Numbered from the stretch's first letter, positions 4,274-48,142 are shown. The stretch is DNA of 64,000 nucleotides from an uncultured virus (IMG/VR IMGVR_UViG_3300028416_000010) (IMGVR_UViG_3300028416_000010); one strand, 5' to 3'. Program-made: numbers and translations. The notes: a model not told the origin generated them from the letters alone.

Positions 4274-5065
4274 TTAAACATATTTAACTATTTCGCAATA
4301 ACCTATTCTAAACTCACCATCCTCATCAATAAGATATTCACCACTAGGTAAAGTATCAATATAATAATATCTACCACCTGTACTTTTACCTTTAATATCA
4401 ATAGTATCTTGTTGTGTATGTCCTACAATTTGAATATAATTCTTTTTTAAATCAGATTGTTTATTTGATAATTGTAATGATTTAGGTCGAATCCATATAG
4501 GAGATTGTCCTTCATTATCACCATAACCATTTGGACTAAACCCTGTATTGTTTCTATCATAATACCCATTAAATGTAAATTGGTTTGGTTTATGATGATA
4601 TAAATCATTGATAAACTCTCCAACACTATCGTAGTCTTCATAATCGTGAGACCAATAACCTGTATCTTTTAAGAATGTTTCACTGATACCAGCGTGAGTA
4701 CATAATCTATCATCTATTTGAACACACATTTGAAAGTGTTCTTTATTTTCATCAAAAAACATTTCAAATTCATACATCATATTGGCGTTGAAACCAGATG
4801 TTGAACCTTTACCTGTAATACCTCTCATGTAGTGGATGTCGTGATTTCCAATAAGTAGATAAACTCGTTTAGTTGGGTCTAATTCTTGTAATTTCTTAAA
4901 CTCAACAATATCACGAGCGTTTCTTAATTGTACTGTACCAGGAATATCAAATGAATCAAAGTAATCAGCGATAAAGACAATGTTATCTGCGTCCTTATGT
5001 TGTTCAACAATCTCCTTCCATATGTCTCTACCATGGATGTCTCCTATGTATATATTTTTTCCCAT
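4274..5065 (-). CDS. Calcineurin-like metallophosphoesterase
   Basis: Motifs GDIHG, ADYFD, GNHD, THAG, VGHT. Confidence 0.9.
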   Translation of the reverse strand: MGKNIYIGDIHGRDIWKEIVEQHKDADNIVFIADYFDSFDIPGTVQLRNARDIVEFKKLQELDPTKRVYLLIGNHDIHYMRGITGKGSTSGFNANMMYEFEMFFDENKEHFQMCVQIDDRLCTHAGISETFLKDTGYWSHDYEDYDSVGEFINDLYHHKPNQFTFNGYYDRNNTGFSPNGYGDNEGQSPIWIRPKSLQLSNKQSDLKKNYIQIVGHTQQDTIDIKGKSTGGRYYYIDTLPSGEYLIDEDGEFRIGYCEIVKYV

Positions 5066-8010: not shown

Positions 8011-8418
8011 TCATAATATATGTTTTTTAGCGTTTTCTAAATAAAATATGATATTTTCTTTACCTTGTGGGTTTGCTGAATGTACATGATATTCGGGTAT
8101 TCTAACACCTTTATCTAAACAATATTCAACTAACCATTTAGCACAATCCATACCAGTTTTCTCCATACTACCAAACTTCATATTCATTTCATCTTCGGAC
8201 ATATTATCATAATCTTCAGGTTTGAATTCATAGTGAAAATCAGCCAAATCATGGTCAAATGAAATTATATCAGGTAAACCATTTTTAGTGATGTAATCTA
8301 CAAATTCACCAAAGTTCCTAACTGTATCCCAACCTTCTTCCCAATAAAGTTTGGCGTTTGGCATATAGTAACAAGCATCCTTAACTTGTCTCATATCATC
8401 TAAAAATAGTTTTTTCAT
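8011..8418 (-). CDS. Cyclic-phosphate-processing receiver-domain protein
   Basis: LFLDDMR, ISFDHDL, TGMDCAKWL, HSANPQG motifs. True start is likely MKKLFLDD at 8418; the track extension overlaps the ncRNA. Confidence 0.8.
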   Translation of the reverse strand: MKKLFLDDMRQVKDACYYMPNAKLYWEEGWDTVRNFGEFVDYITKNGLPDIISFDHDLADFHYEFKPEDYDNMSEDEMNMKFGSMEKTGMDCAKWLVEYCLDKGVRIPEYHVHSANPQGKENIIFYLENAKKHIL

Positions 8419-8434
8419 AGTCTTAATATAATTA

Positions 8435-8559
8435 AAAAATCTCAAAGGGGTCATTGTGACCTTCATCTTAAATCTTTTCTAGAATGGATTTAAAACCTGT
8501 TTCTCAGTTACCTCCATGGCTAGGAGAGATTATTTCGATATTAATCTTCCTTTGAGATT
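8435..8559 (-). ncRNA. Self-promoted structured ncRNA closed by an AATCTCAAAG/CTTTGAGATT stem
   Basis: TACATTTG promoter immediately upstream, terminal stem followed by a T-tract, internal hairpins. Confidence 0.65.
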
Positions 8560-14560: not shown

Positions 14561-15043
14561 TTAAAATAACGAATTTAATAACACTGGTTTATAGTTTAAT
14601 TGTTCACAACACACATTTATATATCTTTCATCACCAATAATATCTTCATGTAAATGTCCATGTATGTTGATTTTAAATCTCTCTAATTCAATTGGATGTA
14701 TTGGTATATGTGTTAAAACATATCCTTTCTTTTTGTCTGTTACAGCACCAGAAACAGCGTTAACGTATTGTAACATTTTTTCGTTGTGTGAAGTTTTACA
14801 CATATCATGGTTACCTAAAACAACTTTTTTATTACCCTTTAGTAGACCTAGTTTATAATATTCAGAAGATTTCTCCATTGTTAAATCCCCTAAAATCCAT
14901 GTTGTATCACCTTTATTTACTACACTATTCCATGAATCGATAATGTGTTGGTCGTGTTCCTCTACACTACCAAACCCTCTATAGATAGCCATATTTTTAT
15001 GACCTAAATGTAAATCAGATATTATATAAACTTTTCCACCCAT
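14561..15043 (-). CDS. Calcineurin-like phosphoesterase (phage RNA-repair-associated type)
   Basis: SDLHLGH, LGD, GNHD, THIP, NIHGHLH motifs. Confidence 0.9.
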   Translation of the reverse strand: MGGKVYIISDLHLGHKNMAIYRGFGSVEEHDQHIIDSWNSVVNKGDTTWILGDLTMEKSSEYYKLGLLKGNKKVVLGNHDMCKTSHNEKMLQYVNAVSGAVTDKKKGYVLTHIPIHPIELERFKINIHGHLHEDIIGDERYINVCCEQLNYKPVLLNSLF

Positions 15044-15067: not shown

Positions 15068-15900
15068 TTAATCCCACCATCTTCTAATATAAAATTCTAA
15101 AAGTGTATACAATAATTTATGAGCTCTTTCTTGTTTAGCTTGAGATTCTTTAAACCATTTATCTTTATTAGATTTTATTTCATCTCGTAATTCAGCATAT
15201 TTTTCATCAATCTCATAGTTCCATTTTATTGTGTTAAAACCAGGTCTATCTGGAATTTTTTCAAATACCCACTCATCAACATCTTCACCATAAGTGTCTT
15301 TTAGTTTTTGTTGGTATTCACAGGCGTAGTCTTCATCATATACTTTATCCATTAATCTACAAATCATACGAATTCTTTGAGCGTCAATATGTGAGTTAAA
15401 ACCATAAGCTTTATCAGATTCCATGAACTTAGCTTGTTTCAATAACTGATGTTTGAATACTTCTAACGAGTATCTATAATCAAAATCAAATTGGTTCCAT
15501 ACCACAGGAATCCAATTAATAATATTTTTAATTTGTTTATATTTTCTGCGAGGCCAGTAAGTGATGTTTCTCCAAATATTTTCTAATTTATTTTTCATAA
15601 TTATTCTTTGTATAATATTGTTTTAACTAAATTTTCCATAAAAAAATATGATGGTTCATGCCCTCCAATTTCAAATTGTGTTACTTCATTTATTGGTTTG
15701 TTTTCCTTCCAATCATAAATGCAAAAAAAATAACCATCATGCTCTAAAATCCATTCATATCTTGATTTCCCATCTCCAGAATTTATTCTATTTGGCTCTC
15801 CAAAAAGCTCAACCAATCTATAATAAGAAACATTAATTGAACCTCTATGTGAAGAACCAATTAATTTATCTTTTACTTTTTCTTTATAAACTCTTTTCAT
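15068..15900 (-). CDS. Two hypothetical phage proteins (15068-15598, 15601-15900)
   Basis: Full-length ORFs; the second has a 'DGKSRYEW...IYDWK' pattern. Confidence 0.7.
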
Positions 15901-15934
15901 ATATATTAATATTTAGAGACAAATTTAATAAATT

Positions 15935-16978
15935 TCATAATAATTTATATTCTGGTTTTAATAATTTCCATATATAATTCGAATAGTTTTTTCCATCATA
16001 CATTCTGAATAATATCGGTTGTAAGTGTTTGTCTTGTTTCTTAACCCATTCAGCATAAAACTTCTTCTCTGGTAAATCACCATCATAATTTTCGTATAAC
16101 ATATCAAACAACTTACCAGCATGTTCACTTATGGACATGAAACCATACTTTAATGATTTCTCATAGTCTCTTATTTGTGGGTAAAACTCATCTGGTACAC
16201 CATCAAAAACTTCTTCTATTGATTCACCATTTGATAATATCTCCCACACTGACTTAGTAGATATCATTGATATTATTCTATGAAGTCTTATATACTCTTC
16301 ACCTTTGATTTTCATTTTGTCACCATTGGAGAATCTAACAACAAAACCTTCTTCATTATCACCAACCATATCTTTCAAAAGGGTGAAGTCTTTTATACCA
16401 TCGTATTTCTTAACAACACTTAAACTTATGTTGGATATTAAGTTTTTAAATCTTATAGGTCCGTTGTGGATGTCTATCTCCTCACCAGACTCAGTATTTA
16501 TCATTCCCAATAATATAACGTCTTCAAATGAATATTTAACCACTATATGATTTTCATTATATATTATTTCAAATAGATAAGTATAATCTTTGTGTAATTT
16601 TTGGTATTCGTATTTGGATAATAATTCTAAACCTCTAACAGATTGTTCTGAAGTGAATGAACCACGAGTGGCGAATATCCATTCACCCTTGTAGTTAAAA
16701 AGTATTCCCAATGAACCATCCATTTTATCATAAACGCCAAAGTCTGAAGTTGGTGTGTGTTTACCCTCTTCCATATTGAAGAATTTTTTGAAAGGACGTG
16801 CTACTATATTACCTTCATCATCAGTTACCAACCCTCTACATTGTAATAGAGTTTCATCCCATAAACCTTCATATTGAACCTTATCTGAATAGTTCCATAT
16901 GGTTAATGGTAATGAAGGGTGTTTTTGACTAAACAATAAACCTTCTGATTCGTATTTATGTAATAATTTTAAATCCAT
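15935..16978 (-). CDS. T4 Rnl1-like RNA ligase
   Basis: Motif I KMDGS, plus RPFKKFFN, ATRGSF, LFEII, EGFVV, KIK. Confidence 0.9.
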   Translation of the reverse strand: MDLKLLHKYESEGLLFSQKHPSLPLTIWNYSDKVQYEGLWDETLLQCRGLVTDDEGNIVARPFKKFFNMEEGKHTPTSDFGVYDKMDGSLGILFNYKGEWIFATRGSFTSEQSVRGLELLSKYEYQKLHKDYTYLFEIIYNENHIVVKYSFEDVILLGMINTESGEEIDIHNGPIRFKNLISNISLSVVKKYDGIKDFTLLKDMVGDNEEGFVVRFSNGDKMKIKGEEYIRLHRIISMISTKSVWEILSNGESIEEVFDGVPDEFYPQIRDYEKSLKYGFMSISEHAGKLFDMLYENYDGDLPEKKFYAEWVKKQDKHLQPILFRMYDGKNYSNYIWKLLKPEYKLL

Positions 16979-16992
16979 ACCACAAATATAAC

Positions 16993-17026
16993 AAAAAAAG
17001 GTTAGATAACAAATATCTAACCTCTT
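16993..17026 (-). terminator. Intrinsic terminator downstream of cassette array 1
   Basis: AGGTTAGATA-N4-TATCTAACCT hairpin with adjacent A-run (T-tract on the minus strand). Confidence 0.7.
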
Positions 17027-17135
17027 AATTTTAAATTTTCTTTGTTCTATCTGAATAATTTAAATATGTAAACTTTTGTTCACAAATCTTTACAATTTTT
17101 TGATTTAGCATCCTATAACTATTTAATAATTAATA

Positions 17136-17166
17136 ACTTACAAAAAGGTGTTGATATATACTAGTT
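17136..17166 (+). other. attI-like primary recombination site, copy 1
   Basis: ACTTACAAAAAGGTGTTGATATATACTAGTT is identical to 62273-62303; identity ends exactly at the GTT of the first cassette. Confidence 0.75.
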
Positions 17167-17207
17167 GTAGTGCATTAAAACGACACCACAACAATATATA
17201 AAATCAA

Positions 17208-17366
17208 TTAATTATTACTATTTGCTTTTAAGAACATTATTGCAGTTTTGTAACTTTCAATCAATCTAAAGTAAGAGGCTTCTACAAAATCTTCTCTTGC
17301 TTTACTATGTTGTTTCTTTGCTTTTTTTAGTTGGTATTCCATCAACTTTATTGTTATCCAATCCAT
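17208..17366 (-). CDS. 52-aa ORF wholly inside an attC loop
   Basis: MDWITIKLMEYQLKK...FLKANSNN, between the arms of the first attC. Confidence 0.65.
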   Translation of the reverse strand: MDWITIKLMEYQLKKAKKQHSKAREDFVEASYFRLIESYKTAIMFLKANSNN

Positions 17367-17390
17367 AATTAACTGTTTTTATATTTAACG

Positions 17391-17675
17391 TTAGCAGCCA
17401 TTTAAGACCGCATCTACCAACGCTTGACGAGTATCAAAACAATCTTCGTCTTTTACCCAAAATTTGCAACCCATTTCACCACTTGTATGGTAAACTTCCA
17501 ATTCAATGTCGGTGTGTTCATATAGGTAATGTTTCTGACCTCTAATAGCTTCTACTTTGCCATTCATAATGTGTCGCCCATTTAAAAACCACACCTCTTG
17601 TCCGAAATTAAAACGGCTGCTAACAGCAGCTATGCCTAATTGCGGAGCTTCGTTGTAATCTGATACTTTTTCCAT
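17391..17675 (-). CDS. Cassette protein (starts in attC loop, stop in crossover GTTA)
   Basis: PQLGIAAVSS is the translated attC arm. Confidence 0.75.
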   Translation of the reverse strand: MEKVSDYNEAPQLGIAAVSSRFNFGQEVWFLNGRHIMNGKVEAIRGQKHYLYEHTDIELEVYHTSGEMGCKFWVKDEDCFDTRQALVDAVLNGC

Positions 17676-17744
17676 TTTATTATATTTTGTTGTTAATTAA
17701 AAATTTCGTTCTTTAAATCCGCAACTAAGCATAGCTGCAAACCG

Positions 17745-18032
17745 TTATGGTGCATACAGCTTCAACCTCTTAACTTGGTCAATCCCTTTTGCATTACAAT
17801 ACAAGGCAAAATTTCCTAAGTATTTATAACTTTCACTACTTATATCCATCGAACTACGTACATCGCCTAAGTTATCCCAGTGCTTTGCTACGTTCTGCAA
17901 TCCTAAAAACATACTTGCGTTCTTTGCAATCAAATAATTTTGCCTTTTTTCGCTACTAAGCAAGAAAGTACGCACCATAACAATGCGTATAATCCATTGC
18001 TTAAATTCTACTAATTTGTTAAGTATCTTCAT
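17745..18032 (-). CDS. Cassette protein (starts in attC loop, stop in crossover GTTA)
   Basis: QWIIRIVMVR is the translated attC arm. Confidence 0.7.
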   Translation of the reverse strand: MKILNKLVEFKQWIIRIVMVRTFLLSSEKRQNYLIAKNASMFLGLQNVAKHWDNLGDVRSSMDISSESYKYLGNFALYCNAKGIDQVKRLKLYAP

Positions 18033-18113
18033 TTTATAATCTTTTAGTTGTTATCCAAAGTCTGTGCTGTTAAACGCAACGTATCATACGCTCAACGTTA
18101 TAAAACATAAAAA

Positions 18114-18389
18114 TTATTTACACGGTTCGTTTTTTCTGCCACTACCTGTTTCAATCAAGTATGCCTTTTCGATTAACTTCAAATAAGATACTGGTTTGCC
18201 TCTATCAGTGTCACAAATAACTTTCTGTCTTTCTTCATTATAGTATCCTTCAGAAGTTAATCGAAATTCCTCACCATCGGGCATTCTAACTAAATCACCT
18301 TTTCTCCACGCAGATAATACTGGGTTATGTTCTATCCTATCCATAATTTTTACGTTTTTATAACAACAAATATAAGCAATTATTCTCAC
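18114..18389 (-). CDS. Cassette protein (start uncertain, possibly 18344)
   Basis: ORF in the cassette body; SH3-like 'KGDLVR' stretch. Confidence 0.65.
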   Translation of the reverse strand: MRIIAYICCYKNVKIMDRIEHNPVLSAWRKGDLVRMPDGEEFRLTSEGYYNEERQKVICDTDRGKPVSYLKLIEKAYLIETGSGRKNEPCK

Positions 18390-18473
18390 AATTCCAAATA
18401 AATGTTGTTTATTAATATTAAGTTCCGTTCTTCTAATTAAGTTTTCGTTAATAACTGCTTATATTTGCAACCG

Positions 18474-18614
18474 TTAGCAAACATCGTGTTTTAAGTTACA
18501 TTTGCTACATATCCAATACTCTTTTTTATCTGTTTCTTTTAGTTTGCCTAATCGGTACATATCAGATACTTTTTTTCTTTTATTGCACCAATCGCATTTC
18601 TTAGTCTTTGTCAT
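18474..18614 (-). CDS. 46-aa zinc-finger-like cassette protein
   Basis: CDWC...CSKC; stop in crossover GTTA. Confidence 0.65.
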   Translation of the reverse strand: MTKTKKCDWCNKRKKVSDMYRLGKLKETDKKEYWICSKCNLKHDVC

Positions 18615-18669
18615 AGTCACGTTTGCTAACATTATTTAAAAATCATTAAAACGCTTTTTACATTTAGCG

Positions 18670-18894
18670 TTAGCGGAAATGCCTTTTAAGAGCTTCATTC
18701 GTCTTTTCGGCTTTCTTGGAAAAATCATGGTCATATAATGCTTTATCTGTGCAATCGGCACATAATCCGTCATACATATCTCTATGAACTGTCCCGTCTT
18801 TTTTTAAGCAACCACTACATACTAAGGCACTATCCGCTAACAAGCGGTTAGCGTCATTGCCGTTTTCGTGGTCAATTGAAGTTTTGTGTTCCAT
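18670..18894 (-). CDS. Zinc-finger-like cassette protein (starts in attC loop)
   Basis: CSGC...CADC; NDANRLLAD is the translated attC arm. Confidence 0.7.
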   Translation of the reverse strand: MEHKTSIDHENGNDANRLLADSALVCSGCLKKDGTVHRDMYDGLCADCTDKALYDHDFSKKAEKTNEALKRHFR

Positions 18895-18971
18895 ATCAAA
18901 TTTATTTTAAAGTTAAAGTTTCGTGTTCCAAAGTCGGCAACGAACGCCAACCCTCAACCGTTATAAACAAA

Positions 18972-19157
18972 TTATACATATCCCGTTAATTCTCTAATGG
19001 CTTCATCTCTTTTTTTCTTTTCAGAAAAAGGTATTACATCGCCATCTAAATAAATACAATAAAAACCTTGTTCCTCGCCACTTTTCACTATTTTAACATT
19101 TGCCACATTAACATAAATAACACCGTCAATAGTTCCGCTTATCATTCTAAAATTCAT
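18972..19157 (-). CDS. Cassette protein
   Basis: 61-aa ORF filling the cassette body. Confidence 0.7.
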   Translation of the reverse strand: MNFRMISGTIDGVIYVNVANVKIVKSGEEQGFYCIYLDGDVIPFSEKKKRDEAIRELTGYV

Positions 19158-19301
19158 ATTTTCATCAGTTTATAACATTATTTAAAAATCATTAAAACGC
19201 TTTTTACACTCAACGTTATGTGTAAGTGTTCTGTTCATCGTTCTAATCAACATTTCGGTTGAAAATTTTAAAATAAAAATTCTACACACAAATTTAACAA
19301 A

Positions 19302-19823
19302 TTAATTTGAATAATCAAAATCATATTTTACTATAAGGTTTTTTGGTATAATCCCAAGATACGCAACAGAACCCCATATATCTAAACTTTCAATTATCTT
19401 TTCACTATCGGTTTCCGCTTTGTTCCAACCATATTTATTTAATATGTAATCATCATCCCAAGTTAATTTATCTAAATTTAATTTAGTAACATCAATCCAT
19501 AATCTCACTATTGGTTTGGTTTCATAGTTTTCTTCATTCTCATAATATTCATCCATCACATCCATTAGTGATTGTGGTAAATTCGCTTTATATAATGATT
19601 GTGACGTAGTTAAAAAAATACCTTCTGAAACATCTCTATAATAAGAATTTGGGTTTTTTCGTGGTATTAAACCCTCAATTTTAATATCATCTAAGTAATC
19701 AGTTAATGTATAATGAAAAAGATATTTCCCATCAATTAAATAGTTTTTAACATTATCATTTACATAGTTTTCATTCAAAAACTCTCGTATTGTGGTTTTA
19801 ATAAATTGTCTCAAATCTTTCAT
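19302..19823 (-). CDS. Cassette protein, possible ADP-ribosyltransferase/Tpt1-like fold
   Basis: 'LFHYT...IKIEGLIP...GIFLT' pattern; 'IKTTIREFLNE' leader; upstream TATTTATA motif. Confidence 0.45.
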   Translation of the reverse strand: MKDLRQFIKTTIREFLNENYVNDNVKNYLIDGKYLFHYTLTDYLDDIKIEGLIPRKNPNSYYRDVSEGIFLTTSQSLYKANLPQSLMDVMDEYYENEENYETKPIVRLWIDVTKLNLDKLTWDDDYILNKYGWNKAETDSEKIIESLDIWGSVAYLGIIPKNLIVKYDFDYSN

Positions 19824-20069
19824 CTTTTATTTTATATATAAATATTAACAATTAAAATTTCCACCGTTCTTTTTCTTTTAAAACTTTTGTTCAGTTCTCC
19901 GAATAAACATACTACCTTAATTAACCACACCTACACATAACAAGGTGTATATGTAATGTGAGGTTCAGTGTTATGTTAAAGTTCATCATTCTAATCAACA
20001 TTTGTGGTTAAGTGGAGTTTAGTGTTTCAAATCTCACACTACATATACACCCAACCGTTGTAAGTAATA

Positions 20070-20228
20070 TTATTTTTTAGGGTTTCTTGTTTTCCAAAAC
20101 TCTATTGCTTCTCTATGTGTAAAAAACTCGTGAAGTTCATAGAACCTTTCTCCGTTTTCTACATAAGCAAAATCCCATACTTCCCACTTATTTGTTTCTT
20201 TGTTTTTTACTGGTCTTTGACAATCCAT
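20070..20228 (-). CDS. 52-aa cassette protein
   Basis: MDCQRPVKNKETNKWEVWDF...RNPKK fills the cassette body. Confidence 0.65.
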   Translation of the reverse strand: MDCQRPVKNKETNKWEVWDFAYVENGERFYELHEFFTHREAIEFWKTRNPKK

Positions 20229-20350
20229 AATCTATTCATTTAGTTAAAAAATAATACATACTCACAACAACGTGTAAAATTCATTAAAACGAAATCTTAC
20301 ACAAACCGTTATAGCCCATTGTAGAAAACGGCAGACAAAACATTAAAAAT

Positions 20351-20959
20351 ATGGAGTTAGAAAAAAAACTCGACAAAGTATTAAATATTCTATATGACGA
20401 ATCCTTGTTGACGTTAAAAAGAATACCAACAACAGACATTGCTGTATTCGGAAAACGTAGATATGGACTTGATATGTCTGATACTGAAATATTATTAATA
20501 ATGGATACCTTACAAGATGAAGGATATGTTATTATGAATAAAGGCGATTTTTCAGGTTCAAATATGAAAATGCCAACATATTCCTTAACAAGTAAGGGGA
20601 TACGACTTAAACAAAATGGTGGTTTTGCATTTAAAAGACATGTTGAATGGTGGACAAATTTCTTAATTATTTCCGCTTCCATAGTGACTATTATTGTTGG
20701 TTTAGCGACAAGTATTGATTTTTATTTTAAATATTTATCCTCTCCAAGCGAAATAAATAATAGCACTGAAAACACTCAGACAATAACAGAACCAACCCCA
20801 AAAGCCGATTATAATATTGAATTTAGCGATACAGAAAAGACTAACAATGATAAAAATGGCAATACCAATACCAATCAAAACAAGATGGATACTATTACCG
20901 ACATTGACACCATTACTGACTCTATCAAGAAAACGGCTATCAGACCGACTAATAAATGA
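20351..20959 (+). CDS. Canonically oriented cassette gene: wHTH-like N-terminus, one TM, Thr/Asn-rich tail
   Basis: Only + strand gene in the array; followed by the attC at 21035-21165. Confidence 0.8.
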   Translation: MELEKKLDKVLNILYDESLLTLKRIPTTDIAVFGKRRYGLDMSDTEILLIMDTLQDEGYVIMNKGDFSGSNMKMPTYSLTSKGIRLKQNGGFAFKRHVEWWTNFLIISASIVTIIVGLATSIDFYFKYLSSPSEINNSTENTQTITEPTPKADYNIEFSDTEKTNNDKNGNTNTNQNKMDTITDIDTITDSIKKTAIRPTNK

Positions 20960-21171
20960 TTTTTTTCTTTTAAATAATGACATATTTTTAATTTTAACTA
21001 ATTGATTAATAATACAAAATACAAGAACAACGGACTATAACAGCGTATATGAGCAATAGCGGTTGTAGTGGTAAATTGAAGTTTAGTGTTTCTAATAAAG
21101 TTCGGTACTATCCGAAAGTTTATGTTTCTAAATCCGCTACTGCTCATATACGCAAAACGTTAGGCTTAATA

Positions 21172-21705
21172 CTACCACTCACTCCAATCAGCTATTGTTT
21201 TTTTGCCTTTAGAAATCCTTATAATGTTAGGCTCTAAAGTCTTTAAGGTTTCTTCTGTATCTGCATCTACATCTAGCCTGTATACTTCGTCACTATCACC
21301 ACCAATAGAAGCGTAAACCCTTTCTCCATCTTCGGTTATTCCTGCAAAACCAAAGCTATATTTGTAGTAACTGCTAAACTTTAGTTTAACATTACCATAC
21401 TTTTCGTAAATCTGTTCTTTTGTCATTTTATTGTCTTTTTTTGTTAATGTTCCGTACTAAGCCTAACACTGTACATAAGGCATTAAAACGCCCTCATGTA
21501 CTCAACGTTATGTGTAATGCTAGGGTTTTTCTAACCTCTTGTTTCTATTATATAGATTTTTCTTAATTGTGTTACTATCTTCCGTACCATTAGCTGATAT
21601 ATGATTGGATATTAAAATACCTTCCATTCTTTTAATTTGGTCAACTTCGTTTGGTATATGACCAATCCGCAGGTTATCCCATTTTTCAAGTTTACACTCT
21701 TTCAT
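21172..21705 (-). CDS. Two single-gene cassette proteins (21172-21426, 21520-21705)
   Basis: Each ORF fills one cassette body. Confidence 0.7.
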
Positions 21706-21843
21706 TTCAATTTATTTTTATCGTTAACAATCCGCACTACACACAATAACGTATATACCTCATTTTCGTACCTCAAACGGTGCATATACAAACCGTTATG
21801 GTGCAATTAAAAAAGCACATAACACAGAATATAAATAATAAAA

Positions 21844-22083
21844 TTAACTAATCACTTTTTTATCAGTCCAATTTTTTTCGCCTCTAAGAATACTTAACAT
21901 ATTCAACATATCGTCTTTATCATAAGATTCGTGGCAACCTTGTATATTAAATAAATAATCTTGCGACCACCAAGTCCAAAACAAAAAACGCTTTCGTTTC
22001 TCTATGATGTATTTTTTATTATTTCCGCCCACTGCATTATTAATAGATTCTATCAATCTATATTTTTGATTATCTTTCATCAT
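21844..22083 (-). CDS. 79-aa ORF wholly inside an attC loop
   Basis: Bounded by arms AATATAAATAATAAAATTAAC and GTTAATTTTACTATTCATATATT. Confidence 0.7.
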   Translation of the reverse strand: MMKDNQKYRLIESINNAVGGNNKKYIIEKRKRFLFWTWWSQDYLFNIQGCHESYDKDDMLNMLSILRGEKNWTDKKVIS

Positions 22084-22167
22084 CCGTTAATTTTACTATT
22101 CATATATTTTACGTTATAACCAATACTACATTATACGAACTAATTAACATTTTGTCACAAAAACTTT

Positions 22168-22467
22168 TTAATCAACGTGTTCACATCTTTCAAAAGTAAT
22201 TTCATTAAAATCTAAATTAATTTGGCATTTATGTAATTTCCATATATGGTTATTATTACTTGGAATTATGAAACCACTATTAAATAATTCATATTTTCCA
22301 TCAAACTTATTACCATCAACAACAATAAATTTAAATGGTTTCCATTTAGATTCACCAGTAAATTGTTTTGTCACATCCTCAATTATTAAAGTTGGGTTTT
22401 CATTAAATTGTATTTGGATAATAATATCACCCAAAATTAATTTACCGTTTTTTAATTCATTTATCAT
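22168..22467 (-). CDS. Cassette protein
   Basis: 99-aa ORF in the cassette body. Confidence 0.7.
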   Translation of the reverse strand: MINELKNGKLILGDIIIQIQFNENPTLIIEDVTKQFTGESKWKPFKFIVVDGNKFDGKYELFNSGFIIPSNNNHIWKLHKCQINLDFNEITFERCEHVD

Positions 22468-22839
22468 AATCTCTAATTTTATTTATAATTATTATTAAAA
22501 GTTTTTGTTTAGTATTTCAATCAAGTTTTTTCTTAAATTCACCGTACTGGTTATAACACCATATATAGTTTATAAGCCTGTTTAACATACTTTTTTAATT
22601 AGTAAGTTTTTCGTATGGCTTACAAAACCATATACTCAACGTTATACACAATATTTTTTAACAACCCATTAATTTGAGTTATCATTCTGGTTTTTAACCT
22701 CATCATCAATCATTTTATTAAGGTTTTCTTTGACCCAATCCATATTATCTGTGGAAACATTCATTTGACTTAGTTGGTTAAGTAATTCTGTTTTACTTTT
22801 TTCCATTTCTTCTTTAGTTTGTTTTTTCTTTTCCATATT

Positions 22840-23244
22840 CTATTTTATTTTTATTTCTTTACTTTTGGTATAATTTAATTTTTCACCTATTTTTATTAAT
22901 TCACCAATAATCATTGAATTTAATTTCCCATTTAACATCGCAAACGGTTCGTCACTTTTCTTAAAATTAAAACCATTATATTTAATAATTTTAGATGTTA
23001 AATGGTATATTTCATGAGTTAATGTATCAACACAAACACCGTCATCGGTTATTTTTACTAAGACATATACCAATTTTTCTTTTGGAATAAACTCACCAAT
23101 AACAATCCCATCAAAATCAATTTCACTTATTTTATAAAGTTTTTTCTTATTATGTTTTTTCTTTATCTTGTTGATTGGCTTACTTAAATCATAATCAAAA
23201 TAAATTTTAACTTTAATATCATATAATGGTATTTCTATTTTCAT
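22840..23244 (-). CDS. HExxH metallopeptidase-like cassette protein
   Basis: LTHEIYH plus a downstream E. The cassette also carries a 55-aa ORF (22669-22836) and a TATATTTG motif. Confidence 0.55.
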   Translation of the reverse strand: MKIEIPLYDIKVKIYFDYDLSKPINKIKKKHNKKKLYKISEIDFDGIVIGEFIPKEKLVYVLVKITDDGVCVDTLTHEIYHLTSKIIKYNGFNFKKSDEPFAMLNGKLNSMIIGELIKIGEKLNYTKSKEIKIK

Positions 23245-23347
23245 TTACAAATATACTAATTTATTTTTAATTTATCAATCCATTTCACAAAAATACAGTG
23301 TATAACAAATGATAAACAACATTAAAACGATTGTTTATCATCAGACG

Positions 23348-23590
23348 TTATGAGCAATGAAATTTATCATTAACCCAAATTTTAAACTTTTCTTTAAGTT
23401 CTTCCTTGCATTGCTCAGGTTGGTAATACCCGCTTATCTCACCATTAAACGTCTCATCACTTTCTAACCATCCATTATAAAAAGTTTCTGCGAGTAATGC
23501 CATTAATTTCACTTCACTGCTCATAACATCAGATATATGTAATTTTTTATCTGTGTTATTATCTTCTGTACTTTTTTTATTATTATCCAT
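23348..23590 (-). CDS. Cassette protein (starts in attC loop, stop in crossover GTTA)
   Basis: KKLHISDVMS is the translated attC arm. Confidence 0.75.
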   Translation of the reverse strand: MDNNKKSTEDNNTDKKLHISDVMSSEVKLMALLAETFYNGWLESDETFNGEISGYYQPEQCKEELKEKFKIWVNDKFHCS

Positions 23591-23674
23591 ATTATTTACG
23601 TTTTGTGTTTTGGTTTAAGAAAAACTACATATATCTGTAGCCGTTGTATGCAATTAAAAAATACATACAACACA

Positions 23675-23818
23675 TTATATAGTTAATTTTTTAACTTCCC
23701 TTTCTACTACTTTTATAGCTTCAATAACTTTATTATCTATAACTTTAGGTAAGTTACCTCTATCAAATAGCCACTCTCTATGTGCTTTTAATATAACCAT
23801 TGCTTCATATAATCTCAT
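23675..23818 (-). CDS. 47-aa ORF inside an attC loop
   Basis: MRLYEAMVILKAHREW...VKKLTI, ending in the left arm. Confidence 0.65.
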   Translation of the reverse strand: MRLYEAMVILKAHREWLFDRGNLPKVIDNKVIEAIKVVEREVKKLTI

Positions 23819-24147
23819 AATTTATATATTTTAATACGTTAAAAATCTAACCATATAACCCTACGTTATAGGTAATGCTCTTTAATTATATCCATAGCAC
23901 TCCATATTTTTTTTACTTCTGGTAATTCTCTGAACTCTTCAACTGTAAGCTCTTCTTTATCTACCATCAACTGCATCATACTCCAACTTGTATTCACCTG
24001 CAAAGTGTGGCTCAATGGGTATGCGTATAACAGTACCTAAAAAACAGTTGGTGTTATCTCCTACTTTAAGTTCGTTCCTTTCTTCTTGCTTTGTCATATC
24101 ATAAAATTTAGTGGTTGTAAATCCAACCGTTTCTTAGCTGCATCCCG

Positions 24148-24303
24148 TTAGCTGCAATAAAAAATAAGAGCTTCAAAATCACTAAAATTTATTACACCTT
24201 GCTTAACCCATCGGTACAGCATTTTTAGTTTTTCTTTTTCACTTTTCAATTCTTGTAATGTATCTACTTTTTCTTGGTATTTATATTCGTCTAGTTGTTT
24301 CAT
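24148..24303 (-). CDS. 51-aa cassette protein
   Basis: MKQLDEY...ALIFYCS; stop in crossover GTTA. Confidence 0.65.
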   Translation of the reverse strand: MKQLDEYKYQEKVDTLQELKSEKEKLKMLYRWVKQGVINFSDFEALIFYCS

Positions 24304-24436
24304 AATCTTATTTTTTAAAGTTCACTTCGTCAGCTAACAACGTGTATATTGCATAGCCTATCGGCATACGCACCATACACAATGCGTTATGTGTAAGTGT
24401 TCTATTCATAATTCTAATCAACATTTCGTTTGAAAA

Positions 24437-24847
24437 TTAAAAACCATAATGAAACCATTTATCATCATTTTGTAATTGCTCTTTTAATTGCTTGTTTATT
24501 TTCCATACTATATTTTGAGCAATAACAGAAGTTATCCCTTTAACATCAAAATCATAAGCAATTTGACCAATTGAATATACAAACATTCTCAATAATTCTC
24601 TTGGTATGTCAAATGTTATATCCATATCATTTGTGTAATTTTTACTAGAAAAGTTTATTTCATTACTTATTGGTCGCATAACTAAGTGATGTAAGTCTTC
24701 AAACCAATCCTTACTCAATCTTTCACAACCTTTTCTCATCATTGATTCAACCCAAGTACTCGATGAATTCCATTCTTCTCTTGTTAGAGAGATTTTAACT
24801 ACTTTTTCAAAGTAACTAATATTTGCAATTTTTTGTTTATAATCCAT
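24437..24847 (-). CDS. Cassette protein
   Basis: 136-aa ORF in a cassette whose attC is partly deleted. Confidence 0.7.
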   Translation of the reverse strand: MDYKQKIANISYFEKVVKISLTREEWNSSSTWVESMMRKGCERLSKDWFEDLHHLVMRPISNEINFSSKNYTNDMDITFDIPRELLRMFVYSIGQIAYDFDVKGITSVIAQNIVWKINKQLKEQLQNDDKWFHYGF

Positions 24848-24927
24848 ATGTTTTTATTTAATTTTTTTGTTCAGTTATCCGAATTAAGTTTCCACCTTCT
24901 CATACACCCATACGTTATGTGCAATAA

Positions 24928-25248
24928 TTAGCAAAACTGATAGTTTAATTCTGGCTGTAATTCCTTTATCATAATTCTCTCATTTGCCCTCGCTATTTCT
25001 TTAGTATCAAACTCCATTATAAGCACCTTGCTAAATTGTTTTGGTTTATGTTGCAACATTCGATGATACAAACTACCTGTATATCCTATGTACTTTATTT
25101 CATCATCATATACCAAAGCGTAGTTAAAATATCTCTCTCCACACTTTTTCAATTTTGTGGTTATTTGCTTTTTGCTAATTACAGTACATAACAAAGGCTC
25201 ATATTGCATAACCTTTTTTATCTCTTTTATTGATTTTTCTGGAGTCAT
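24928..25248 (-). CDS. GIY-YIG nuclease-domain cassette protein (starts in attC loop)
   Basis: FNY...KYIGYT...RMLQH...E...PELN. Confidence 0.75.
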   Translation of the reverse strand: MTPEKSIKEIKKVMQYEPLLCTVISKKQITTKLKKCGERYFNYALVYDDEIKYIGYTGSLYHRMLQHKPKQFSKVLIMEFDTKEIARANERIMIKELQPELNYQFC

Positions 25249-25678
25249 ATAGTTTTGTATTTCAATTAAATATTGTATGTAATTACCAGTTACGCAACAT
25301 AGCCAAACCGTTATCTGTAAGTGTTACGTTCATCATTCTAATTAACATTTCGGTTGGAAATTTTTAAAAAGTTATTTTTTTATAATCTCTAAATATGGCA
25401 TTGGTTTTTTCATTTTCGTAAATTTATATTAATTTAATTCATAACCATCAACAAAATAAAACTTTGGATACTTAATCGTTTTTCCATCAAAATCAAACCA
25501 ATACCACCCATCATATTCTTTTTGTGTTAAGTAACTCCAACCAGTCTTTAAATAACTTGTTTGGTGAGTTAAAATAAAGGTAACCCATTTTTGTTTATTA
25601 TTAACGTTTTCTTTTGTTTTTTTCTCGTTTGGGAATACTAACCCCATTATTTTTTTACTAACTTTACCCATCTTTATT

Positions 25679-26821
25679 TTAATTTAAAATTACATCAATA
25701 ATTTTATTCGTTATATTTCTAAAATACTCTTCATCATCACCCACTTTAGTTACCATAGCTGCGGTACCAATTCTTATACCTGATGTCTCCCAAACACCTC
25801 TAGGGTCATCTGGTATACTATTTTTATTTACAACTATATTATATTCTGATTCCAATTTGTCAGCAACTTCAGCACCTGACTTATCACCAGTATGAATTAA
25901 TATAATATGTGAATCAGTACCATCTGTTGTGATTTTAATTTCGTTTTCTTTAAGAATATCACACATATATTTCGACATCTTTATCACATTTTGTGAATAT
26001 TGAACAAAATCTGATTGTAGAGCCTCATAATAAGCCTGTGTTTTACCCGCAACTTGATTCATTAATGGTCCACCTTGTGTACCTGGAAAAACACCACTAT
26101 TTATTTTTTTACTATATTCCTCGTTATTCCAAAGAATCATACCACCTCTAGCACCTCTTAATGTTTTGTGTGTGGTAGATGTTACAAAATCAGCATAAGG
26201 TAAAGGTGAATCATATACTTTACCAGCAATTAACCCACTATAATGAGCCATATCAACCAATAGATAAGCTCCAACTGAATCAGCTATTTCTCTAAACCTT
26301 TTAAAATCTATTTGTCTTGGATAGGCAGAAGCTCCAGCAATAATTAATTTAGGTTTAACTTCTTTTGCCTTTTCCTCTATTTGATTATAATCCAACCAAC
26401 CATTAGCATCCACACCATAAAAATGGTTATCAAACCATTTACCACTGATATTGGCTGGTGAACCATGTGATAAATGTCCTCCTGATGATAAATCCATCCC
26501 CAAAATAACATCATTTGGCTTTAAGAATGCTTTAAAGATTGCTAGATTGGCATTAGCACCACTATGTGGTTGTATATTGGCGAAGTTACAATTATATAAT
26601 TTAGTAACTAACTCAATCCCATAATTCTCCAGTTCATCATAATGTTCACAACCATTATAATATCTTTTATTTGGATAACCTTCAGCGTATTTGTTAGTAA
26701 ACTCTGAACCACAATAATTCATAACTTCTCTGGATGTGAAGTTTTCTGAAGCTATAAAGTTATGCTCCATTTCTTGTCTACCCATTTCTTTGGATAGGAT
26801 TTGTCTTAATTTATTTTCCAT
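25679..26821 (-). CDS. glyA: Serine hydroxymethyltransferase
   Basis: IASEN, KYAEGYP, QPHSG, GGHLSHG, TTHKTLRG, PGTQGGP, SGIRIGT. Confidence 0.97.
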   Translation of the reverse strand: MENKLRQILSKEMGRQEMEHNFIASENFTSREVMNYCGSEFTNKYAEGYPNKRYYNGCEHYDELENYGIELVTKLYNCNFANIQPHSGANANLAIFKAFLKPNDVILGMDLSSGGHLSHGSPANISGKWFDNHFYGVDANGWLDYNQIEEKAKEVKPKLIIAGASAYPRQIDFKRFREIADSVGAYLLVDMAHYSGLIAGKVYDSPLPYADFVTSTTHKTLRGARGGMILWNNEEYSKKINSGVFPGTQGGPLMNQVAGKTQAYYEALQSDFVQYSQNVIKMSKYMCDILKENEIKITTDGTDSHIILIHTGDKSGAEVADKLESEYNIVVNKNSIPDDPRGVWETSGIRIGTAAMVTKVGDDEEYFRNITNKIIDVILN

Positions 26822-26835
26822 TTTTATTTTTTAAT

Positions 26836-26983
26836 TTGACCGACTTCAGGATTCGAACCTGTTTGTTCCATATTAGTTGACTACGTTAAGGTTATTTCCC
26901 TACTCGAGTTATTATTCCCATCAACATATTATTAGGAATAATCCTTGCGTCCAAGGACCGTGTATACCATCCACCAAGTCGGT
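26836..26983 (-). ncRNA. tRNA-like RNA with ~85-nt structured insertion in the anticodon arm
   Basis: Acceptor CCGACTT/AAGTCGG, D-arm GTG-GATGGTATA-CAC, T-arm CAGG-TTCGAAT-CCTG; insert hairpins TCCTTG/CAAGGA and TTATTCC/GGAATAA. Confidence 0.7.
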
Positions 26984-47536: not shown

Positions 47537-48142
47537 TTACATTAATTTTTTCAACTTCTTTTTTAGTCGATGAAATTTTGTTAAACAATTAGTTAAAGTT
47601 AATCCTGTTTCTTCTGCAATTTCTTCAAAACTCAAATTACTATTGAATCTTAAAAAGATTATTTGTTGTTCTTCTTTATTTAGTTTACTCACTGCTTTTT
47701 TAAGTCTTCTTATGCTTTCTGAATCTAACTCATTAGAAATTATACTTTCTTCTACGTTTAAACTTTTTTCTTTTATTTGAATAGTTTGAACTTCATTATC
47801 TCCTAAATCAAAAGAATCATCAATTCTTACCATTGAACTCCTAATAATATAATCTTTTTTACGTTTTAAATCCAAAAACATATTACGAGTAATTTTTCTC
47901 GTCCACCCCCCTAAAGAAGAATTGCTTTTTTTGGAGCTAAATTTATCTAACGAATAAAATAATTTAATCATAACTCTTGAAGTTAACTCTTCTGCTTTGT
48001 CGATATCTCCCCCAAAAAGTCTTATTGCTTCATATAAGGCAACTTTCTTTTGACTATCATAAATTTGTTTATGAAATTTGGTATTTCCTGATTTGACTTC
48101 CTCTAAACAAGTCAATATATCTATTTTATTTTCTTTTTCCAT
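47537..48142 (-). CDS. ECF-type RNA polymerase sigma factor
   Basis: Region 2 'AEELTSRVMIKLF...WTRKITRNMFLD' and region 4 'LNKEEQQIIFLRF...SFEEIAE...HRLKKKL'. Confidence 0.9.
   Translation of the reverse strand: MEKENKIDILTCLEEVKSGNTKFHKQIYDSQKKVALYEAIRLFGGDIDKAEELTSRVMIKLFYSLDKFSSKKSNSSLGGWTRKITRNMFLDLKRKKDYIIRSSMVRIDDSFDLGDNEVQTIQIKEKSLNVEESIISNELDSESIRRLKKAVSKLNKEEQQIIFLRFNSNLSFEEIAEETGLTLTNCLTKFHRLKKKLKKLM

Follow-up and report, generated by a model that had tools for sequence, protein, structure and literature searches.

Leader-trailer processing stems enclose the rRNAs in rrn transcripts, and RNase III sites lie between the early genes of phage T7. PeSL cassettes of T4-type phages were reportedly described by Arbiol and colleagues in 2010. 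In the sections of Comeau et al. 2014 (PMC4122927) that define them, PeSL include a sigma-70-like promoter (-35/N17/-10) after the stem-loop; as portrayed there, they are conserved stem-loops between small ORFan genes in the hyperplastic regions of large virulent phages, they mark places where related phages differ by an insertion, deletion or replacement, and a dedicated recombinase is not involved. The phage-related parts of Qi et al. 2023 (PMC9892861) report CALINs in virulent phages and activity of IntI1 on phage attC sites. Finally, the passages of PMC11893778 on the repeats of Ssn/NTS, GIY-YIG single-strand nucleases, describe oriented hairpin repeats that cluster around genes, a loop that is dispensable or extendable for recognition, and a small single-domain nuclease gene with repeats on its flanks. 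Some of these traits have a likeness in the locus analysed here.

The window is a stretch of 64,000 nucleotides from an uncultured virus (IMG/VR IMGVR_UViG_3300028416_000010). Its genes include RIIA, an Rnl1-type RNA ligase and a sigma factor. Between about 17.16 and 25.31 kb it carries an array in which stem-loop repeats lie between small variable genes, and which differs at the level of whole cassettes from L198-L200 and from metagenome contigs. The phage is marine, large and virulent, with the array in its variable region, and the host is probably a Bacteroidota bacterium. The original prediction had singled out three loci in this array (Table 1) as 'inside-out' integron cassettes, in which a 29-bp inverted repeat forms an empty body and a complete gene is carried between the arms of an attC site. 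The three inverted repeats and the three ORFs, all on the minus strand, are indeed present at the positions given. The reading of their layout holds in part.

Two kinds of self-closing block alternate along the array, and this two-phase layout is new here. Type 1 blocks run from a GTT-arm to an arm-AAC, and the cassette junction (marked ^) falls directly after AAC. Type 2 blocks, from the junction to the next GTT, open with about 5 unpaired nt and close with about 3; between these lie a stem, its interior and the returning stem. Both types can house a gene in their interior. For most of the window's cassettes, type 2 is a small hairpin that has the conserved loop CGTTTTAATG or else an interior of 59-72 nt with a start codon in it, and the gene runs into or sits in type 1. 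The three cases differ: a short gene begins and ends within type 2, its leader and trailer arms being the type 2 stem, and type 1 is reduced to its minimal form, a conserved 29-nt hairpin (H). Since the gene thus lies in type 2, where the interior of a short hairpin is usual, and type 1 has shrunk to H, 'inside-out' is a valid parse of these cassettes. By membership the sites are not integron attC sites.

Table 1. Positions of array features in the window (^, cassette junction).
Feature	Position	Strand	Details
Junction-box array	17390..25310	minus	22 boxes (xAYAAC^G or xCTAAC^G), cassette delimiters
Ordinary cassettes (examples)	17624/17390, 17981/17744, 18630/18473, 21467/21159, 22557/22113, 23527/23347		gene within GTT-arm/arm-AAC
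H copy 1	17164..17192	minus	reads GTTGTGGTG-TCGTTTTAATG-CACTACAAC^; basis: sequence, chance test of pattern, fold
Trailer arm, case 1	17196..17215	minus	stop codon inside; pair I10
ORF, case 1	17208..17366	minus	52 aa
Leader arm, case 1	17365..17384	minus	start codon at its end; pair I10
Arm pair I10, case 1	17196-17215 / 17365-17384		20 nt; 90% complementary; 149 nt between
H copy 2	21795..21823	minus	reads GTTATGTGC-TTTTTTAATT-GCACCATAAC^; arm type II of H family
Trailer arm, case 2	21829..21848	minus	pair I13; both mismatches G.T
ORF, case 2	21844..22083	minus	79 aa
Leader arm, case 2	22086..22105	minus	pair I13; junction ...GGTTATAAC^ at 22113
Arm pair I13, case 2	21829-21848 / 22086-22105		20 nt; 90% complementary; 237 nt between
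H copy 3	23643..23671	minus	reads GTTGTATGTA-TTTTTTAATT-GCATACAAC^; arm type I of H family
Trailer arm, case 3	23675..23695	minus	last seven codons and stop; I11 mismatches 2 G.T and 1 A.A
ORF, case 3	23675..23818	minus	47 aa
Leader arm, case 3	23838..23858	minus	pair I11; conserved in L146 and L109
Arm pair I11, case 3	23675-23695 / 23838-23858		21 nt; 86% complementary; 142 nt between

A partner upstream with at most one mismatch in 12 is found for 6 of the 22 junction boxes, against 33 of 2000 random 12-mers, 16 of 1275 other ...AAC 12-mers and 1 of 22 when the boxes are searched downstream. Of the 12 positions in the box that precedes case 2 (22113-22124), all but one are complementary to 22546-22557. 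For 13 of the 22 boxes the best partner in an ungapped search has 3-4 mismatches; for some of them a partner that is gapped or lies farther away was seen by eye or by an inverted-repeat search. A common loop, CATTAAAAC, is shared by six window sites in a single orientation, and the loop CGTTTTAATG recurs in 88 contexts on 38 different stems. The cassette at about 21040-20308 carries a gene on the opposite strand (20351-20959), so that stems in a minus-strand transcript cannot serve that gene.

Each of the three ORFs is bracketed by 20-21-nt arms that are complementary at 86-90% by Watson-Crick pairs and at 95-100% once G.T/U wobble on the gene strand is counted; the seven mismatches over the three pairs are, on that (minus) strand, five G.T and two A.A. 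The inverted-repeat search recovered the three pairs independently. Each leader arm has its partner in its own trailer arm, not in a neighbouring site, and the alternative pairing that would have refuted the original prediction was not seen. In case 1 the junction ...GCTAAC^ (17390) is followed by the 5-nt linker GTTAA and the leader arm, and in case 3 the junction ...CCTATAAC^ (23865) by the linker GTAGG and the leader arm. The flank-complementarity score is 30, 32 and 17 for cases 1, 2 and 3, and at least 30 in 1 of 110 non-array ORFs; the low score of case 3 is due only to the position of its trailer arm within the ORF, past the 8 nt allowed. With RNA parameters the minimum free energy (MFE) fold of the three cassettes contains the leader/trailer stem and H (z = -1.7, -2.0 and -3.9). 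With DNA parameters the stem is kept in case 1 and absent from the MFE in case 3, and case 2 has z = -0.37. Enclosure of the ORFs thus stands as originally described, but the enclosing elements do not: the outer R''/R' boxes of the three long sites have a pair probability of 0.000-0.002, and it is the leader/trailer stem adjoining H that surrounds the ORF.

Two of the three enclosed ORFs are conserved. The case 2 protein has homologues with 80-85% amino acid identity in L072-L075 and 34% in L076, and none of these has H beside it; the case 1 protein has homologues with 58% identity in L015 and L020, and L079 has the same C-terminus, trailer and H as case 1. L146 and L109 retain the case 3 trailer arm, and L088 retains part of it. 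This leader/trailer/H frame holds unalignable ORFs in four contexts (the window, L146, L109 and L088, the last three with ORFs of 46-52 aa), and genes have therefore been exchanged between constant arms. The capture of genes into a hairpin loop, proposed earlier as a route of cassette genesis, finds no support in these data.

H itself is a conserved, recurrent module, neither an accident nor the odd empty body it had been taken for. It was found in 52 distinct contexts among 128 IMG/VR matches, and also in four Bacteroidota genomes, always in gene orientation. Its arms covary: the family comprises two arm types, whose positions 4 and 6 differ in a compensatory way. The flanking sequence diverges straight after AAC. 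The three copies close locally with a pair probability of 0.85-0.98 on both strands. The pattern GTTGT-N17..21-ACAAC has two matches in the window against 0.20 expected, a count reached in 3 of 100 shuffles; the remaining copy, GTTAT...ATAAC with a one-base bulge, lies outside this pattern. Copy 1, the final block of the array, with a cassette junction at its AAC end, has a local fold probability of 0.92-0.98 and bears the loop CGTTTTAATG of the other hairpin class, which ties H to the same family. Leader/trailer complementarity is a general trait upstream of H: 13 of the 38 H instances reach a score of at least 24 there, compared with 2 of 38 in the downstream control. The other side of this count is that 25 of the 38 show no strong leader/trailer partner.

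Cassettes in related phages and in seawater metagenome contigs break at ...AAC^G. The cassettes at 18100-17738 and 17748-17389 recur in L198, L199 and L200 between unrelated flanks, with breaks at ...TAAC^G, and metagenome contigs part from the window at 17392, 17743, 18096, 21799, 23642, 17170/17176 and 24388. The points 17170/17176 fall at H copy 1, and contig divergence is likewise seen at 21799 (copy 2) and 23642 (copy 3), so that the AAC end of H is a breakpoint in all three cases.

The strand on which these stems keep their pairing is the gene strand, that is, the mRNA-sense strand. Mismatches in twelve cassette inverted repeats, read on this strand, are 18 G.T, 2 A.C and 8 others, and the 38 distinct stems of the CGTTTTAATG hairpins have 31 G.T and 5 A.C. 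About 7% of the stem pairs are G.T, a share usual for RNA helices. G.T is also the mildest mismatch in single-stranded DNA, and the wobble asymmetry therefore fixes the strand and not the molecule. This asymmetry is the basis for a putative role of the stems as RNA. The array region is present among contigs from an RNA library, a presence that is not proof of transcription. The resemblance to rrn and T7 stems lies in the long helix formed from both sides of a functional unit within a single transcript, in the tolerance of G.U pairs, and in the separate folding domain made by each unit. Here, in contrast, what the stems surround is a small protein gene or a gene-free unit of 60-90 nt, and their fixed GTT/AAC ends coincide with DNA breakpoints.

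Could the loci nevertheless be integron-type attC sites, folded as single-stranded DNA and recombined by an integrase of the host or one not yet seen, with a terminal structure grown to 140-240 nt so as to hold a gene? The polarity on the folding strand would fit (5' ...AAC, a 5-nt as against a 3-nt spacer, stem, variable interior, 3' GTT). The bottom strand of integrons is cut at the 5' box, and the breaks fall at that box here; the two ends of a cassette are mutually complementary, as if derived from one hairpin in a circle. Within what the phage-related parts of PMC9892861 describe, the likeness extends to mostly single small genes set apart by imperfect AAC...GTT hairpin sites with unequal unpaired spacers, to a site structure kept while its sequence varies, and to the lack of a nearby integrase in CALINs; those phage CALINs and the IntI1 activity also speak for this explanation. 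Yet no Phage_integrase match at E<=0.01 was obtained in the 44 window ORFs scanned, including all 17 of at least 200 aa, and none of 5 related phage records, 3 of them at least 90% complete, gave a PF00589 match, with the positive control matched in 14 of 14 genomes. AAC/GTT is invariant, but the usual boxes, ATAAC/CTAAC and GTTAT/GTTAG, depart from RYYYAAC/GTTRRRY at further positions. On the folding strand the gene comes after its structured site, an order that mirrors the one in integron cassettes. Instead of a variable, non-coding terminal structure, the interior of the three sites holds an ORF, and loops elsewhere, such as CGTTTTAATG and TTTTTTAATT, are conserved. Sites and the blocks between them are both self-closing, with a gene in either, and wobble pairs are frequent on the mRNA-sense strand, at an RNA-like share. 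Together with the unpaired outer boxes, these features make an integron origin improbable; by membership the sites are not integron attC sites, and the attC identity assigned to them earlier is not supported.

A still slightly less probable explanation is that H is an autonomous signal placed after short genes (a 3'-end RNA stability element, a phage-polymerase terminator or a protein-binding site) and that its GTT/AAC ends and its place in the block layout are incidental. The extreme conservation of H, loop included, its constant orientation and its occurrence after gene-free structured units at many IMG/VR loci would agree with this. No T-run was found 3' of the H stem, and H is thus not an intrinsic terminator. 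Moreover, H shares its GTT...AAC ends with the gene-enclosing arms, its AAC end is a breakpoint, and copy 1 has the loop of the other class. Chance palindromes of AT-rich DNA would be invited by the low G+C (23-31%) of the window, by self-complementary TATATA-type boxes and by sigma-70-like promoter matches at chance level (59, against 55.3 +/- 8.5 in shuffles, for a sigma-70 model that may not be of the host's type). This explanation retains practically no probability: it is refuted by the shuffle test, by arm partners far above all three controls and by the 52 H contexts, the hairpin and arm elements being kept across dozens of unrelated contigs.

The three loci belong to a common, conserved packaging of swappable genes in phages of Bacteroidota-type hosts and do not represent a gene-swallowing integron site. 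We think it somewhat probable that they are ordinary members of a two-phase, stem-closed phage cassette system, with stems that would act mainly at the level of the transcript and with integrase-free shuffling. As parts of the transcript, or of the mRNA-sense strand at any rate, the stems may act as self-contained folding or processing domains, which would let a cassette work in any neighbourhood. Co-infecting phages could shuffle cassettes and their contents where the conserved stems have their bases, with no need of an integron integrase; microhomology or hairpin-guided template switching and a structure-specific enzyme not yet described are candidate routes. Invariant GTT/AAC ends and exact AAC^G breaks count against this account: they are the expected leavings of a site-specific enzyme, and a purely regulatory role does not explain them. 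A bolder and rather doubtful version would give one integrase-free cassette system, with two alternating kinds of self-closing stem, to Bacteroidota phages and to part of their hosts alike; the loop of either kind could hold a gene, a small structured RNA or nothing. Its stems would be both transcript domains and places of DNA exchange, through a structure-guided mechanism not yet described (template switching guided by hairpins, or cleavage of the folded gene strand by an enzyme at AAC^G), and H would be the minimal obligatory exchange site.

Likeness to the other described systems has limits. The hexamer 17 nt after GTTTTA varies (TTATAA, TTAGGA, TTGACC, TTGTGA etc.), so that GTTR alone is conserved and a -10 is not, and the PeSL description, in the sections of PMC4122927 drawn on here, lacks gene-enclosing long-range arms and a two-phase grammar. 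A weak GIY-YIG-like ORF (24928-25248) is itself an array cassette with 23-nt arms; its match (E 0.0075) is below the Pfam cut-off, NCBIfam gave no match and the solved chains none that was meaningful, and it has relatives in 0 of the 5 related phage records. The array is therefore not linked to Ssn/NTS, and that candidate was dropped.

If the layout is true, large lytic phages of marine Bacteroidota-type hosts would pool small accessory genes in a portable format that needs no integrase, the gene being swappable and the folded frame constant. It would provide a testable rule for locating cassette borders in uncultured phage genomes, and would allow 'looks like attC' to be separated from 'is an integron' in counts of viral attC-like sites. 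It would also explain the movement of ORFans between phages that differ greatly in size; records of 45 kb, 95 kb and >300 kb have cassettes or modules in common.

The array runs along the minus strand, the gene strand of the window, and alternates between two kinds of self-closing block, a layout derived from the intergenic sequences and from a partner search for each junction box. Each cassette has ...A(T/C)AAC or ...CTAAC at its end and is followed by a G, the first base of the next cassette (junctions are marked ↓ below). For 6 of the 22 junction boxes, the 600 nt upstream contain a reverse-complement partner with no more than one mismatch in 12, and for three further boxes one with two mismatches; the controls gave 33/2000 for random 12-mers, 16/1275 for other 12-mers ending in AAC and 1/22 for a downstream search. 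The partners start with GTT. A type 1 block is thus written GTT-arm ... arm-AAC↓ and encloses a gene in most instances, while a type 2 block fills the stretch from a junction to the following GTT and consists of about 5 nt, a stem, an interior, the second stem strand and about 3 nt. Three kinds of type 2 interior occur in the window, the third being a whole short ORF (see the table). The spacers of case 1, the first of these gene-enclosing blocks (...CTAAC↓GTTAA-stem...stem-ATT-GTTGT), are those of the short sites, for example ...ATAAC↓GTTGA-stem-CGTTTTAATG-stem-AGT-GTTAG. The original prediction had described cases 1 to 3 as 'inside-out' attC cassettes with the gene in the hairpin loop. The sequence and ORF calls confirm the positions that it gave for the three ORFs and for the three inverted repeats of 29 bp, and the array layout, case 1 spacers included, makes 'inside-out' a correct formal description: gene and short loop are swapped between the two block types.

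Table. Coordinates and properties of features of the array and of the surrounding phage genome
Feature	Position	Strand	Details
Type 2 interior, kind 1			10-nt loop CGTTTTAATG; six sites, one orientation throughout
Type 2 interior, kind 2			59-72 nt, annotated start codon inside in several; inverted-repeat pairs I1, I3, I5, I14, I15
Type 2 interior, kind 3			whole short ORF; cases 1, 2 and 3
Case 1 arms	17196-17215 / 17365-17384		20 nt, 90%
Case 2 arms	21829-21848 / 22086-22105		20 nt, 90%
Case 3 arms	23675-23695 / 23838-23858		21 nt, 86%
Minimal site	18834-18852	minus	CGCTAAC-CGCTT-GTTAGCG
~40-nt module, four copies	19225-19265, 19985-20010, 24385-24424, 25310-25350	minus
GIY-YIG-like ORF	24928-25248	minus	106 aa
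Its arms (I2)	24914-24936 / 25170-25192		23 nt, 87%
Terminator-like hairpin	16996-17026	minus	strong; 13 pairs, then T-run
T4 Rnl1-type RNA ligase	15935-16978
Serine hydroxymethyltransferase	25679-26821
RIIA-like protein	40019-42514
Intein-bearing gene	44785-46590	minus	601 aa; Hint and LAGLIDADG homing-endonuclease domains
Sigma factor	47537-48142

The minimal site lies in frame within the annotated ORF 18670-18894, the end of which is again CCGCTAAC↓. Several ORFs (17391-17675, 17745-18032 and 23348-23590) have their start within a type 2 interior and continue through a GTT (valine) codon into type 1. The sole plus-strand gene of the array (20351-20959, 202 aa, weak winged-helix match) lies inside the paired arms GTTATAGTCCGT (~21040) and ATGGGCTATAAC↓ (20308), whose minus-strand pairing includes two G.T wobbles; the frame is therefore independent of cargo direction. 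A roughly 40-nt module, ATGTT(G/A)ATTAGAA(T/C)(G/A)ATGAAC..ACACTTACA(C/G)ATAAC↓, ends at a cassette junction in each of its copies and translates as MLIRxMN(R)TLT(H/D)N; the annotation lists two of these copies as ORFs of 35-38 aa (19182-19289 and 24308-24424).

The 29-nt hairpin, H, follows each of the three enclosed ORFs (17164-17192, 21795-21823 and 23643-23671). The window contains two matches to the pattern GTTGT-N17..21-ACAAC, where 0.20 would be expected, and the third copy is of the form GTTAT...ATAAC with a bulge. All three gene-spanning inverted repeats were recovered by a repeat search without prior assumptions, and five of the seven arm mismatches are G.T on the gene strand. With RNA parameters, each cassette has as its minimum free energy structure a long stem of leader and trailer that encloses the ORF, followed 2-5 nt later by the 29-nt hairpin (z-scores -1.7, -2.0 and -3.9); cases 1 and 2 fold likewise with DNA parameters. 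The outer AAC and GTT boxes do not pair across the gene (probability 0.000-0.002 in the three cases) and are engaged by the 29-nt hairpin instead (0.85-0.98). The proposal that these are unrelated small hairpins whose arms amount to consensus boxes was dropped, the 20-21-nt arms ruling it out.

A search with the loop and 3' arm of H matched at least 121 IMG/VR stretches. Among the 128 matches examined of those listed, a complementary 5' arm is present in 52 distinct 48-nt contexts, which include two from the window itself and one chance-like. Two arm types occur among the matches listed, GTTGTATG/CATACAAC in 32 contexts and GTTATGTG/ATCATAAC or ACCATAAC in 13; the changes that distinguish them, at stem positions 4 and 6, are compensatory. 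About 16 nt are conserved upstream of H (the 'TATAT box'), read here as the 3' strand of the type 2 stem; on the downstream side, divergence begins directly after AAC. In 13 of 38 instances, the 30-nt stretch that precedes H has a complementary segment still further upstream (score of at least 24), against 2 of 38 in the downstream control.

Many H loci enclose no gene but 60-90 nt of foldable, G+C-richer sequence, possibly a small structured RNA in cassette form. Gene-free cassettes (~150 nt upstream of H) occur in the related loci L081, L098, L102, L142, L113, L101, L111, L110 and L127; their leader ..AATATGAGTAGTAAGG.. pairs with the trailer ..CCTTATTACTTATATT, G.T wobbles recurring at fixed positions, and the cassette of L102 contains two T-loop-like hairpins (GGTTCGAxTCC). 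An identity as tRNA was rejected, with 0 tRNA genes in 12 loci. Rfam gave no match in 12 related loci with gene-free units, and the three hits in window positions 16500-26000 (E 0.43-0.67) lie far below gathering scores, none being credible.

The most telling result on gene movement is the alignment of case 3 with the related loci L146, L109 and L088. Relatives of its 47-aa ORF were compared through DNA patterns and related loci: the leader and the trailer-plus-H are near-identical, whereas the 46-52-codon ORFs between the arms are unalignable across the four contexts. Genes are thus exchanged while the frame around them stays constant. For case 1, homologues 58% identical are found in two contigs, where leaders and trailers differ from those of the window yet are mutually complementary in both; a third contig shares the C-terminus, trailer and H. 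Case 2 homologues are 80-85% identical in four contigs and 34% in a fifth; the hairpin adjoins none of them, and the innermost 10-nt arms alone are kept in two. Ordinary cassettes also recur as whole units: identity is 90% between 18100-17738 and L198, and 91-94% between 17748-17389 and the matching stretches of L199 and L200, with unrelated flanks past ...TAAC↓G. In contigs from four seawater runs, divergence from the window sets in at 17392, 17743, 18096, 21799, 23642, 17170/17176 and 24388; these positions are cassette junctions, among them the AAC edge of each of the three hairpins.

In a contig of seawater metagenome X15, 21799 is joined to 23245 with six other letters between and four ORFs gone, leaving the leader almost abutting ..CCATAAC↓, a natural emptied cassette. 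In runs X7 and X8, the joint 18119 > 18338 deletes or replaces the ORF that the arms 18102-18117 and 18343-18358 enclose. This joint and 17168 > 21723, 20059 > 23302 and 23169 > 25363 have sides of 21-24 nt, possibly repeat-derived, and are hints only. Contig depth in the RNA-library run X7, which shows presence only, is 188 at 17194-17487 and 5-15 past 19.2 kb.

Pairing bias indicates which strand folds. Non-Watson-Crick pairs on the gene strand comprise 18 G.T, 2 A.C and 8 others in 12 cassette inverted repeats, and 31 G.T, 5 A.C and 28 others in 38 distinct stems around CGTTTTAATG. The excess of G.T over A.C implies that pairing is kept on the mRNA-sense strand, and a G.T share of about 7%, as in RNA helices, favours a role of the stems in the transcript. 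The gene strand could also fold as DNA. The favoured reading is that the stems are self-contained folding or processing domains of the transcript, which would make each cassette independent of its neighbours, and that their conserved bases are the places of exchange, no integrase being involved. A site-specific enzyme that reads structure is still a candidate, in view of the exact AAC↓G breakpoints and the invariant GTT/AAC ends. The GIY-YIG-like ORF of the array (Pfam E 0.0075, below cut-off) is itself a cassette. Single-strand nucleases of GIY-YIG type, termed Ssn, are outlined in PMC11893778; follow-up searches gave no support for assigning this ORF to them.

Membership of the attC/integron system, the other part of the original prediction, is not borne out. 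No tyrosine recombinase was detected in the 44 window ORFs scanned, all 17 of at least 200 aa included. Five records of related phages, of which three have a completeness of at least 90%, were likewise negative (the control was positive in 14/14 genomes). Unlike in integrons, the loops are conserved and the gene order relative to the site is mirrored, and the boxes match those of attC in AAC/GTT only. On the features tested, the array is not an integron. It does resemble a CALIN, and CALINs in virulent phages have already been published, as reported in PMC9892861. PeSL arrays, as outlined in PMC4122927, share the setting and the association with indels, but their defining sigma-70-type promoter is absent here as far as a consensus scan tells, that scan being at chance level. 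A promoter reading, with loop GTTTTA as -35 and GTTATAA as -10, has a constant spacing of 17 nt in its favour; it was rejected, since the second hexamer conserves GTTR only. A published description of the two-phase layout was not found in the main texts of the literature searched. New are this description, the recognition that the 29-nt hairpin is a minimal block of wide occurrence, and the evidence that different ORFs are carried by one frame.

The exact 29-mer H is also present in four bacterial genomes (L201-L204), all Bacteroidota: a Flavobacteriaceae complete genome, a Saprospiraceae MAG, an Ekhidna MAG and Flavobacteria bacterium BBFL7. In each chromosome it is preceded by a short ORF whose leader is of phage type. 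These copies hint at Bacteroidota as the host group and at cassettes shared between phages and hosts. No integrase was found among the 9 ORFs within 2.5 kb of H in L201 and L204; an NTF2-fold immunity protein is among the neighbours in L201. No Shine-Dalgarno-like sequences were seen upstream of window start codons in the intergenic sequences of the array, which fits this host group; Bacteroidota are not known to rely on them.

The window is part of a large virulent phage, with a G+C content of 23-31% and nearly all genes on the minus strand. The public runs containing it are seawater metagenomes and metatranscriptomes. Among annotated phage isolates, megablast of 15900-26900 returned a single 107-base match (LR756500.1) and blastn of 23560-23900 none, and RIIA relatives are at most ~32% identical; no named close relative is therefore known among them. 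The host protein of the intein is terminase- or helicase-like. Just downstream of the array lies an RNA-repair-flavoured set (4274-5065, 8011-8466, 14561-15043 and the RNA ligase gene), comprising two metallophosphoesterases, a cyclic-phosphate-processing receiver domain and the Rnl1-type ligase. The terminator-like hairpin, which separates the RNA ligase gene from the last cassette junction (17164), marks where the transcription unit of the array ends downstream.
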